Of a stretch of DNA of 8,183 bases, positions 777-6,433 are shown in pieces; within the stretch, counting starts at the first letter, position 1; every line of letters starts with the position of its first letter. The stretch lies in IMG/VR virus record IMGVR_UViG_2778261512_000016. One strand, written 5' to 3'. This DNA is from a virus. Lineage: Duplodnaviria; Heunggongvirae; Uroviricota; Caudoviricetes. Made by a program: the position numbers and the translations under genes. The notes under the pieces were generated by a model. It saw only the letters and a program-made list of their open reading frames with translations. It was not told the DNA's origin and made no database searches.

Positions 777-932
777 TTACTCCTCAGATTCGTAAGCTGT
801 GAAGACAGCGACCTCCGTCTGGCCGGTTCGGATTCGTACCTCGCAGAGGTCTTTCCTCGTTACCAGTGCCGTCACTATGACGGTTAAACAGATGACGATC
901 AGGGCGATTAACATCGCCTTTTGCTGCTTCAT
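777..932 (-). CDS. hokD: Hok/Gef-family small membrane toxin (type I toxin), 51 aa, closest from memory to HokD/RelF
   Basis: Translation MKQQKAMLIALIVICLTVIVTALVTRKDLCEVRIRTGQTEVAVFTAYESEE has the Hok hallmark (single TM helix, then RKxLCE ... EVAAF/VF ... YE). GGAG lies 9 nt upstream of the ATG at 932. The product is internal to the 70-aa ORF listed at 777..989. Confidence 0.85.
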   Translation of the reverse strand: MKQQKAMLIALIVICLTVIVTALVTRKDLCEVRIRTGQTEVAVFTAYESEE

Positions 933-989
933 AGCCTGCTTCTCCTTGCCTTTCGGCACGTAAGAGGCTAACCTACGTGTGTAGAGCAT
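777..989 (-). CDS. mok: mok-like reading frame (in-frame upstream extension of hok, as in mokC/hokC)
   Basis: ATG at 989 opens a 70-aa frame whose first 19 aa (MLYTRRLASYVPKGKEKQA) precede the hok Met. This resembles the in-frame mokC extension of hokC as I recall it. The function is regulatory coupling, not a distinct protein. Confidence 0.5.
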   Translation of the reverse strand: MLYTRRLASYVPKGKEKQAMKQQKAMLIALIVICLTVIVTALVTRKDLCEVRIRTGQTEVAVFTAYESEE

Positions 990-1640: not shown

Positions 1641-1674
1641 AGATTAGCTTTTTTTTGAGTGTTTGGAGAGTAAA

Positions 1675-2370
1675 ATGTTAGAACCACCAAAGAGTTATAA
1701 TGAAATGTTGCCTATGCTCCATAAGGCGACTTTTATTACTACATTTATATTTTACCTATCATTAGTCATTTATGGCTACATGCCATTGGTTGGCATTAAT
1801 GCCAAGTATATCCCCCCCGTTAAAGACTACGAGGAATTTATTAAATGGATATTAACCTTTGGCATATTACCAATTGCATCTTCAGTTTTTTGGTCAGTAA
1901 TTAGTGGAGCTTTAGATCTACATAATAATGTAGCAAAAATTATTGGAATAAGGAAGATGTGGGATAGTCATTTAATTATTAAACCATTAGCAAAAATTGC
2001 AGGCGTTACGAGAAAATTAACTACTGATGAATCTCACAAGGTAATGAGTAAACTGTATTACCCAGAAGTTAAAGAGTTAAAAGACAAACATTACGTTGAA
2101 CTTTTCTGGAACAAAGTTTATTACTTTTGGGTTTTCTTTGAACATACAGTAATCGCATTTGTTACTATTTTAATAATAAGTATCGCCAAATTAACAAATA
2201 TATTCTCTGTTACTGGCTCTTTAATTAATCTTTGGTTGTGGATTATTTCTCTTGTCGCATTTGACTTCCTTATTTTCATAGCATCAGTTAAACCAAGAAC
2301 AGAAAGCCAAGTAAGACAAATACCTGATAGCAAAATAAAAGAATTCTTTAACAATAACAATATTTTTTAA
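1675..2370 (+). CDS. Hypothetical integral membrane protein, 231 aa, four predicted TM helices (two N-terminal, two C-terminal, separated by a charged soluble region of about 65 aa)
   Basis: ATG at 1675 with GGAG at 1665..1668 (the listed ORF starts at an upstream TTG at 1663). Hydrophobic segments: ATFITTFIFYLSLVIYGYMPLVGI, FIKWILTFGILPIASSVFWSVISGAL, FWVFFEHTVIAFVTILIISIAKL, VTGSLINLWLWIISLVAFDFLIFIASV. Low-GC codon usage. No family recognised by eye. Confidence 0.65.
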   Translation: MLEPPKSYNEMLPMLHKATFITTFIFYLSLVIYGYMPLVGINAKYIPPVKDYEEFIKWILTFGILPIASSVFWSVISGALDLHNNVAKIIGIRKMWDSHLIIKPLAKIAGVTRKLTTDESHKVMSKLYYPEVKELKDKHYVELFWNKVYYFWVFFEHTVIAFVTILIISIAKLTNIFSVTGSLINLWLWIISLVAFDFLIFIASVKPRTESQVRQIPDSKIKEFFNNNNIF

Positions 2371-2382
2371 ACGAGGTTGATT

Positions 2383-3036
2383 TTGAATTACAAAATAAAT
2401 GGAATAAACATACGTTCAGAAAATGCAGCGAAACCGCACACTATGCCATCTAACTATCTCTGTAAACAGATTGAAAGCACTAATAAAAATGGCAATGCCC
2501 TTGATTTTGGATGTGGAAAACTTAGATATTCAGAACAATTAGTAAATAAATTTGAAACTGTGACATTTTTAGATTCCAGAAGACAACTAGAAAGAGTGCA
2601 AATTATCAGAGGTGTACAAACCACGATTCCAGATTACGTGATAAATAACTATAAGAATGCTAATATTGTTTCTTATGAAAATATAGATAAAATAACAAAT
2701 CATTATGATTTCATACTTTGCGCAAACGTGCTTTCCGCAATTCCATGTGAATCCACAATTCACAAAGTCCTCAGTGCGATTAGAGAATTATTAAAGAGTG
2801 ATGGTGAAGCACTGATTGTCAATCAATACAAAAGTTCTTATTTCAAGAGGTACGAGAGCGGTATTAAACATTTGCATGGGTATATATACCAAAACTCTCG
2901 CAATGCTTTCTACTATGGTTTATTAGATGTGGATACTGTAAGTAAAATATGCTCAGATAATAATTTAGAAATAATAAAATCATGGAGCAAAGCAGGTAGT
3001 TCATATGTGGTTGTTGGTAAACATATACATATTTAG
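2383..3036 (+). CDS. Class I (Rossmann-fold) SAM-dependent methyltransferase-like protein, about 217 aa; not a DNA methyltransferase by motif content
   Basis: Motif I LDFGCGKL, acidic post-I residue in TVTFLD, motif II HYDFILCANVLSAIP, motif III LLKSDGEALIV. No DPPY/NPPY-type catalytic motif or target-recognition domain. Start is uncertain: TTG at 2383 sits 6 nt after GAGG (2373..2376); alternatives are TTG 2377 and ATG 2443. It begins 13 nt after the upstream stop, so it is probably co-transcribed or translationally coupled. Confidence 0.65.
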   Translation: MNYKINGINIRSENAAKPHTMPSNYLCKQIESTNKNGNALDFGCGKLRYSEQLVNKFETVTFLDSRRQLERVQIIRGVQTTIPDYVINNYKNANIVSYENIDKITNHYDFILCANVLSAIPCESTIHKVLSAIRELLKSDGEALIVNQYKSSYFKRYESGIKHLHGYIYQNSRNAFYYGLLDVDTVSKICSDNNLEIIKSWSKAGSSYVVVGKHIHI

Positions 3037-3350: not shown

Positions 3351-4250
3351 TTATAAATCAACAACATTTAGTGTTATATCAATATTATTTAGCCTTGCAA
3401 TCTCTGATGAATCACTTGCTATTTTAGCTTTTAATTTATCAATATTAATCATATCTTCATGGCTTATATAAACCATATCACCTTGGTTAACTTTAGATTT
3501 GTTCACTATGGCTTGAATAACAGACAAATCATCCATTACACCTCTCATAAATTTCACCATGCTTTGATCTTTGAAGTCAGATATCGATTTTGAACGTTGC
3601 TTACGTTGAATTGTTCCTTTTGTAATTACTTCATTAATTTCTTTTAAACCAGTGAGCATATCAGACAGACTGCCTTCGCAACTCATCCGATGTTTTATTG
3701 CATTGCGATTAATAATATTGAGTATAATTTCGAGTGAATCTTTATCACTCCATGGATGTAATGATGTATAATCATGATGGCGTCGAATGGCGTCAATCAT
3801 ATCCTGGACCATATCTTCATCTGCTTTATCGCAAAGTTCATTCACGAAATAGCTGGGGTCGATTATTTTACAATAACTTGGAGTTAGGTATCTTGAGGCT
3901 TTACAAAAACCAAAAATATATAAAGTAGAGTATTTATCTTTCAGACTCTCTCCTATTTCATTTATTTTCTCAAAAGATTCGATAGTTTTTTTAATTTTTG
4001 CTGGACTTGCATTCGTAGTAACTTGAACTGCTATCATGTTTTTATTATCAGCTAAATCAATGGCGGGAAAATTAACTTTAATCTGATTCATGTTTACCAG
4101 TTCACTCATTTTCAGCGCGCGAAACATAAAGATGGTCAATGACTCAATTATTCTTTCCATGTCATGAAAGCCTGCCTGTTTGCGTTGCGCGATATAAAGC
4201 TGGAGTAGTGCAATATCACTCTGTAAGTTTCTAATAAGTGGATCAATCAT
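3351..4250 (-). CDS. Hypothetical 299-aa protein; the N-terminal region resembles what I recall as the SMEK-type domain (NFPAIDLADNKNMIAVQVTT ... KIKKTIESF) and the C-terminal alpha-helical region contains an R-x4-H motif (RNAIKH) compatible with a HEPN-like RNase
   Basis: Long minus-strand ORF with ATG at 4250 and AAGGA 9 nt upstream; AT-rich codon usage matching the neighbouring cargo genes. Domain assignments are from memory and motif inspection only. Confidence 0.6.
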   Translation of the reverse strand: MIDPLIRNLQSDIALLQLYIAQRKQAGFHDMERIIESLTIFMFRALKMSELVNMNQIKVNFPAIDLADNKNMIAVQVTTNASPAKIKKTIESFEKINEIGESLKDKYSTLYIFGFCKASRYLTPSYCKIIDPSYFVNELCDKADEDMVQDMIDAIRRHHDYTSLHPWSDKDSLEIILNIINRNAIKHRMSCEGSLSDMLTGLKEINEVITKGTIQRKQRSKSISDFKDQSMVKFMRGVMDDLSVIQAIVNKSKVNQGDMVYISHEDMINIDKLKAKIASDSSEIARLNNIDITLNVVDL

Positions 4251-4286
4251 AGCTAATAATCCTTTTCAATGAAGCTGGAGGTGTGT

Positions 4287-4303
4287 TTAACTATTAGTTA
4301 AAT
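4287..4303. promoter_or_regulatory. Perfect 8+1+8 palindrome TTTAACTATTAGTTAAA in the 5' leader/promoter region of the 299-aa gene; candidate operator
   Basis: Read directly from the sequence, 37 to 53 bp upstream of the start codon at 4250. AT-rich context raises the chance-palindrome rate. Confidence 0.25.
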
Positions 4304-5931: not shown

Positions 5932-6433
5932 AATTCCATCCAGCTTTTTGTTGGTATTGCTGTCGATACGCAAGCTTGAAAGCAATTGCTTTTTCTATAA
6001 GTTCGTCAGTTTCACGATCTACAACGGCAGGATCTGCAAAAAGCAGTCCGGATTCCACCACATCGCCATATTCTTTATTTAACCCGGCGATCATGTACGT
6101 AATACTTTTTCCATCACTGATCTCACGATACAACCTGAAATCACTAATCCGGATAGCCTCCATAATCGCAGGCACTAGCGCCGTGAACTTTTCACGCTTA
6201 TCCCTGGTGTCGATAGCCTTCCAGCGTTCGAATATCTTCACTCGATTAACGCCAAGCGCTCGCTGATCAACCGCGCCACCTTCATCTGTGACACGCTGAA
6301 CATCGATGTTCGGGCGCTCTTTCAAAGCCCAGAATGCTTCAGTGATTAATATCGTCGCCTGCTCCTGTGTCATTCCTGGTCGACATATCCAGGCATCCAG
6401 AGCCTCACGAGCCTGTTCAGGAGTGATTTTCAT
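5912..6433 (-). CDS. Prophage protein, 173 aa, in the position of the CII/YdaT-type gene downstream of cro; possibly YdaT-family
   Basis: ATG at 6433, overlapping the dicC stop by 17 nt (translational coupling). Synteny cI-like / cro-like / this gene / replication initiator matches Rac-type racR-ydaS-ydaT-ydaU. Family assignment is by position, not by a recognised motif. Confidence 0.6.
   Translation of the reverse strand: MKITPEQAREALDAWICRPGMTQEQATILITEAFWALKERPNIDVQRVTDEGGAVDQRALGVNRVKIFERWKAIDTRDKREKFTALVPAIMEAIRISDFRLYREISDGKSITYMIAGLNKEYGDVVESGLLFADPAVVDRETDELIEKAIAFKLAYRQQYQQKAGWNYESSFC

Follow-up and report, generated by a model that had tools for sequence, protein, structure and literature searches.

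The window, by which we mean the whole stretch of 8,183 nucleotides of viral DNA analysed here, carries on its minus strand a complete gene for a 299 amino acid protein (Table 1). It is labelled 'SMEK domain-containing protein' in RefSeq (WP_024234432.1), and an identical, annotated copy is present in NZ_CP148423. A preliminary description of the locus had reported a convergent gene of this length, and its coordinates agree exactly with the open reading frame list; every peptide quoted there is also present in the translation. The gene converges with a methyltransferase gene on the plus strand, which ends at position 3036 and is the second gene of a two-gene operon (1663-3036) with a gap of 6 nt between the genes. 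The first gene of this operon (1663-2370) encodes a predicted 4-TM protein of 235 amino acids for which no family match was found, and the second (2377-3036) a TehB-like class I SAM methyltransferase of 219 amino acids with a weak PADLOC mad2 match (9.7e-5).

The SMEK gene lies within an island of 32% GC in surrounding prophage DNA of 48% GC, and Ren-like and O-like genes adjoin this island. In the best reading of this arrangement, the gene is a moron in a Qin/Rac-like lambdoid prophage, located directly downstream of a Ren-like exclusion gene. At least 80% of the window is present in 142 complete E. coli genomes. The left edge (1-431) is an IS insertion that most relatives lack, because the best-matching E. 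coli genomes align from position 432 onward, and the 3' end of an IS3-family transposase open reading frame is found at 3-389. A Hok-family type I toxin open reading frame (777-989, minus strand) lies in the segment 777-1101, which also contains the sok antisense RNA (927-1101; Rfam RF01794, 114 bits). In the segment 4966-6433 of the minus strand, a YdaT-family open reading frame and the longest frame of the O-like replication protein, which starts with TTG at 5985, have 74 nt in common. Since RefSeq annotates a shorter O-like gene of 966 nt, translation probably begins further downstream than listed.

Upstream of the SMEK gene, a ribosome-binding site can be read off the sequence, and about 25 nt further upstream a perfect 8-bp inverted repeat, TTTAACTA-A-TAGTTAAA, is present at 4286-4302, which could be a candidate operator. 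A search of the 252-nt intergenic region upstream of the gene revealed no consensus sigma-70 promoter, and scans for promoters and terminators around it returned nothing above the shuffled background.

Table 1. Position of the SMEK gene, its ribosome-binding site and the parts of its product in the window.
Feature	Position	Strand	Basis and remarks
SMEK gene, 299 amino acids	3351..4250	-	Complete, stop codon 3351-3353; open reading frame list
Ribosome-binding site AAGGA	4260..4264	-	9 nt before ATG; read off sequence
Predicted SMEK / Mrr-like PD-(D/E)xK nuclease domain, residues 1-160	3771..4250	-	Includes trailing helices 132-158
E36 of the nuclease constellation	4143-4145	-	Translation
Core nuclease motif D65-x10-Q76-V-T78...K85 (DLADNKNMIAVQVTTNASPAK)	3996..4058	-	Translation and conservation
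Flexible interdomain linker, residues 161-166	3753..3770	-	pLDDT <50 (full-length AF2 model, pTM 0.53)
Family-specific all-alpha C-terminal module, residues 167-299	3354..3752	-	AF2 model
RNAIKH (R182-H187), site R-[NSD]-A-h-[KR]-H	3690..3707	-	Translation, conservation, AF2 secondary structure

The N-terminal SMEK domain

The SMEK-like character previously assigned to the N-terminus was borne out by Pfam (SMEK_N, PF21941; residues 10-120, 80.5 bits, E=1.4e-22, cutoff 27) and by NCBIfam (SMEK_N, NF033859; 104.4 bits, 2.2e-30, cutoff 30). The domain also matches the Argonaute-associated PADLOC model 'Aga_REase-PNTD1-PNTD2' (8.6e-21). A profile of the N-domain of the family matches one solved structure, PDB 26bh_D (E=1.3e-22), which is described as 'Mrr domain from Kordia jejudonensis Mrr-APAZ pAgo'. 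The N-terminal ~155 residues are thereby homologous to the Kordia jejudonensis SPARMA protein (E ~1e-22); the common motifs are a helix-borne E, NFPAIDLAD, QxT and K, in the order E...NFPAIDLAD...QxT...K, followed by a trailing helical hairpin. With the full-length family profile, the alignment covers family positions 7-155, and helices 132-158 align to the crystallised Kordia domain. Homology to a solved SMEK/Mrr domain and a REase-type fold are both found, and the prediction that the first 160 residues form a SMEK, i.e. Mrr-like PD-(D/E)xK, nuclease domain is solid.

The residues of the predicted active site are strongly conserved. Among 137 full-length homologues, E36 is found in 134, D65 and T78 each in 136, and Q76 and K85 in all, and the E/D/QxT/K positions are also present in SMEK proteins from Kordia, Bacillus and Hymenobacter. 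The near invariance of these five residues across distant phyla, together with their identity in the Kordia effector, therefore argues for a retained active site. T78 stands where the canonical (D/E)xK motif has its lysine, and catalysis would therefore have to rely on K85. SMEK has been described as an Mrr-like PD-(D/E)xK nuclease effector that is fused to APAZ in short-Argonaute systems, and weak collateral DNase activity was reported for the Kordia heterodimer KjAgo/SMEK-APAZ (PMC10810196; bioRxiv 10.1101/2023.06.08.544223; PMC12205087; bioRxiv 10.1101/2025.04.08.647717). Of the nucleases named in the literature, the modification-dependent AspBHI is the closest relative of SMEK. The preliminary description had proposed an RNase on the basis of the C-terminal region; what it overlooked is that SMEK itself belongs to the Mrr-like nucleases. 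Because of this kinship and its conserved catalytic-type constellation, the SMEK domain is the better-supported candidate for the effector part of the protein.

The C-terminal module and its conserved motif

The C-terminal region had been predicted to be helical, and this is also seen in two AlphaFold2 models. The model of residues 121-299 (pLDDT 89.4, pTM 0.75) contains an up-down bundle of helices 169-180 (with a short segment at 183-186), 195-210, 229-252 and 264-287. The domain is near-neutral (pI 7.0), and its long helices at 229-287 have a heptad-like sequence with weak matches to designed coiled coils. It matches no described family in Pfam, NCBIfam, PADLOC or the PDB sequences, and the PDB search with the C-domain profile returned coiled-coil noise alone. 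When 1.84 billion representatives were scanned exhaustively with phmmer, the C-domain was found solely in ~300 amino acid proteins with SMEK_N (52 representatives). Two apparent C-domain-only proteins, P0110 and P0150, each lie at the end of a contig and are probably truncated gene calls.

The preliminary description had pointed to the RNAIKH sequence in this region as the R-N-x3-H motif of a HEPN RNase. The motif is present, and it is conserved in the family: R182 and A184 are found in 137/137 full-length homologues and H187 in 129/137, and position 183 is N, S or D in 134/137. In composition-preserving shuffles of the window protein, R-x4-H had P=0.23 and R[NHQD]xxxH P=0.05; the motif in a single sequence is therefore not beyond chance, and its conservation in the family is what counts. 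Beside the motif, E192-G193 are near-invariant, and G212 and K221 are conserved as well. The invariant R182/A184 patch with E192-G193, to which H187 is added in most lineages, thus probably marks a functional site of the C-domain. Since the strong conservation of R-[NSD]-A-x-x-H resembles that of an active site, the role of the C-domain may be catalysis and not regulation.

A HEPN domain is one possible explanation of such a site. In that case R182 and H187 would be catalytic, the C-domain would be a true HEPN RNase, though a highly divergent or circularly permuted one, and the protein an Abi-type RNase or a dual DNase/RNase. As in HEPN RNases, including DUF4145 and EC042_2821, the R-N-x3-H motif has the typical polar residue after R and is placed where a helix of an all-alpha up-down bundle becomes distorted at its end. 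In the AlphaFold2 model this is the kinked end of helix 169-180, followed by the E192-G193 loop and helix 195-210, a local context that resembles HEPN helix-3/helix-4 as described by Anantharaman et al. 2013 (PMC3710099). Some HEPN families carry D in place of H (PMC3710099), and fusions of REase and HEPN domains are known, e.g. DUF4145 and EC042_2821, to which the window protein is similar in joining its bundle to a REase-fold domain in a defence context. The position of RNAIKH within the module, however, speaks against a canonical HEPN. Since the Mrr domain takes in helices 132-158 and the linker at 161-166 is modelled with low confidence, RNAIKH follows the first helix of the C-terminal module and not the third, and a HEPN topology would therefore need a circular permutation.

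The histidine, in addition, appears dispensable in several lineages. In the divergent set it is present in 27/34 members, the others having D (five), N or C, and among the 137 homologues eight members have D (six), N or C instead, which corresponds to ~20% of the divergent lineages. Most of these also lack H158 and H165, but R182, A184, G212 and K221 are retained in all eight, as is the complete N-domain constellation; the core function of the family is therefore independent of H187.

Profile and structure comparisons did not reveal a HEPN relationship either. Scans of 34 full-length and 52 C-domain members with Pfam, NCBIfam and PADLOC gave no consistent match to HEPN models. The only one, to PADLOC Csx1/Csm6 (E=0.0022 in 52 x 5027 comparisons), is taken as chance because it was absent on a rescan of ten AT-rich members. 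In hhalign, the C-domain profile scored 0.3% probability against a real DUF86/HepT alignment, the sole HEPN comparator family built (35 members from a consensus-like seed, every match carrying PF01934); the circularly permuted version scored 0.5%, and E. coli RnlA 0.8%. Foldseek gave no match below E=0.5, and the sole HEPN structure returned was sacsin 3o10 (E=2.4, probability 0.14). A conserved R-x4-6-H with a polar residue after R is thus found, but likeness to any of the HEPN families compared, in profile or in structure, is not. The C-terminal module may be a divergent or permuted HEPN, yet neither the HEPN fold nor the RNase role that had been proposed is supported by these comparisons, and we regard a catalytic HEPN centre as unlikely.

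Distribution and genomic neighbourhood

Homologues of ~300 amino acids number 108, and their distribution is sporadic and HGT-like, in defence islands and mobile elements. Truncated copies of 119-187 amino acids with 82-96% identity occur in E. coli and Salmonella records (P0160 and P0035), and judging by these, part of the population is apparently losing the gene. The neighbourhood was compared by all-vs-all BLAST of flanking open reading frames of at least 70 amino acids in 20 non-redundant loci, drawn from Gamma-, Beta- and Epsilonproteobacteria, Acidobacteria and Planctomycetes. No conserved partner gene was detected among these flanking frames and only the SMEK protein itself was conserved; the small open reading frames upstream of the homologues were mutually unrelated. 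Within the same scope of 20 loci and flanking frames of at least 70 amino acids, no conserved adjacent antitoxin gene was found that would indicate a toxin-antitoxin system. Neighbours differ even between homologues with 80-83% identity. The gene for the ~300 amino acid SMEK protein moves alone, without a conserved partner gene in these loci.

As a rule, the neighbours belong to defence systems or mobile elements, including SLATT_5, Lamassu LmuB_C, AAA_21 pairs, Abi_alpha, SymE, TacA/T and AbiGi, as well as SMODS with S_4TM, Mrr_cat, integrases, TraG, TrwC, a reverse transcriptase and an HNH protein. The defence context suggested in the preliminary description is thereby borne out, and by guilt by association the family is a candidate for a role in defence. 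It is not among the systems recognised by PADLOC v2, and no paper on a stand-alone SMEK with this C-domain was found in the literature searched.

Two of the loci deserve mention in their own right. In Pseudomonas CP145799 (L002, 6958-8700), a 219 amino acid protein with a weak RiboL-PSP-HEPN match (E=0.0039, below cutoff) and a SLATT_5 membrane protein are encoded directly downstream of the SMEK homologue and resemble a separate HEPN+SLATT pair. The equal length of this protein and the methyltransferase of the window is a coincidence; the sequences are dissimilar, and it was rejected as a counterpart. In a second locus (L032, 6050-7981), a two-gene module of SMODS (weak match) and S_4TM lies directly downstream of an 82% identical homologue and is followed by ArdC and IS66.

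Comparison with known systems

SMEK_N architectures were surveyed in a plasmid collection; a separate profile search with the N-domain returned short fragments alone. SMEK_N is a constant N-terminal module that is combined with variable C-termini, including APAZ. SMEK proteins of 344-362 amino acids from Bacillus and Hymenobacter have unrelated domains at their C-termini, and the Hymenobacter gene is flanked by genes for QatA and DUF262. Such a constant module with variable C-termini follows the usual pattern of an effector with interchangeable sensors. Haur_5149, encoded on Herpetosiphon pHAU01 (L036, 3920-7237), is a protein of 1105 amino acids with SMEK_N (3.1e-41), a weak AAA_16 match and many TPR repeats. 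This is an Avs/STAND-like layout with a SMEK effector, and a reverse transcriptase gene adjoins it.

As in Kordia SPARMA, the nuclease module of the window protein is the N-terminal part of a presumed defence protein. Different from SPARMA, the window protein lacks APAZ: its alignment to PDLC02399 breaks off at profile positions 143-177 of 463, and comparison of the C-domain with PADLOC gave no APAZ match. Its C-terminus is instead an unrelated helical bundle of 133 amino acids, and the protein is encoded alone. A short Argonaute (MID-PIWI) gene, which is characteristic of SPARMA and SPARDA, is absent from the window and is not a conserved neighbour in the 20 loci. With antiviral STAND proteins of the Avs type, the protein would share the logic of an N-terminal SMEK effector and a C-terminal sensor, a likeness that is supported by Haur_5149. 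Unlike STAND proteins, however, it contains neither an NTPase nor a repeat sensor, and its C-terminal part is a small helical domain alone.

Proposed function and alternative explanations

Taken together, the gene may encode a stand-alone, horizontally mobile nuclease for defence or abortive infection, in which a SMEK effector is joined to a novel regulatory or oligomerising C-domain, and we consider the chances of this reading as about even. The SMEK domain would be the DNA-cutting effector. The C-terminal bundle would take the place of the APAZ/Argonaute sensor, or of the STAND-TPR sensor, of other SMEK proteins, keep the nuclease inactive and activate it upon an infection cue, probably through oligomerisation via the long helices 229-287. 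The R182/A184/E192-G193 patch could bind a ligand, nucleic acid or a partner; alternatively, it could be an RNase centre of HEPN type, either residual or permuted. One would expect either abortive infection or direct restriction as the result. A bolder version, which we put forward only tentatively, is a single-polypeptide anti-phage system. In this system, an Argonaute-independent SMEK/Mrr DNase would be unleashed by a new C-terminal domain that senses infection directly and that would be either a permuted, divergent HEPN or a new sensor fold with an invariant arginine.

A Type IV modification-dependent restriction enzyme, in which the Mrr-like domain cuts and the C-terminal bundle reads modified phage DNA while the host stays unharmed without an immunity gene, would be in line with the kinship to AspBHI and with a single gene that lacks a conserved methyltransferase or antitoxin partner in a defence-island setting. 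Such an enzyme should contain a reader, but Pfam, NCBIfam and PADLOC scans of the family detected no modified-DNA reader domain, be it SRA, winged helix, YTH-like or another known type, and the near-neutral helical C-domain matches no DNA-binding family. The domain order is, moreover, the reverse of that in Mrr and AspBHI, with the nuclease at the N-terminus. Different from Mrr-family Type IV and AspBHI-like enzymes, the lysine of QxK is replaced by T78, and the invariant K85 is located on the next helix. We therefore regard a Type IV enzyme as rather improbable.

The preliminary description had left open whether the protein acts alone or together with the adjacent operon, and of these options the stand-alone gene is upheld by the 20 loci. 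A three-gene system consisting of the SMEK gene and the convergent operon for the 4-TM protein and the methyltransferase could account for the low-GC island that the genes share in about 150 E. coli genomes and for their co-inheritance with at least 99% identity in about 146 E. coli genomes. This co-occurrence is, however, limited to one recent clonal island, the orientation is convergent, and no homologue of either operon gene was found beside any SMEK homologue in the 20 loci, including those with 80-90% identity. Judged from these comparisons, the linkage is peculiar to one recent E. coli island and the operon is unrelated to the SMEK gene; joint action of the three genes is very improbable. 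Equally hard to credit is a non-immune role in the maintenance or regulation of a mobile element, with a nuclease fold that has lost its activity, which would fit the old annotation 'regulator' in some homologue records and T78 at the canonical lysine position, but not the near-invariant constellation, identical in the Kordia effector nuclease, or the sporadic, HGT-like spread in defence islands.

Conclusions

The annotation as 'SMEK domain-containing' is already known, and the N-domain is of a known kind. What appears to be new is the stand-alone architecture with this particular C-domain. So far, SMEK/Mrr modules have been discussed solely as effectors of short Argonautes. In the ~300 amino acid family, the SMEK module forms a single-gene cassette that circulates autonomously in prophages, ICEs and defence islands, in Proteobacteria and beyond, and the cassette joins it to an orphan domain. 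The RNAIKH sequence also serves as a caution, because a well-conserved R-x4-H alone is insufficient to establish a HEPN domain. If the gene is indeed an immune gene, it would represent a compact new defence nuclease and provide a tractable model for the activation of Mrr-type effectors without Argonaute, with the invariant R182 site as a convenient target for mutation.
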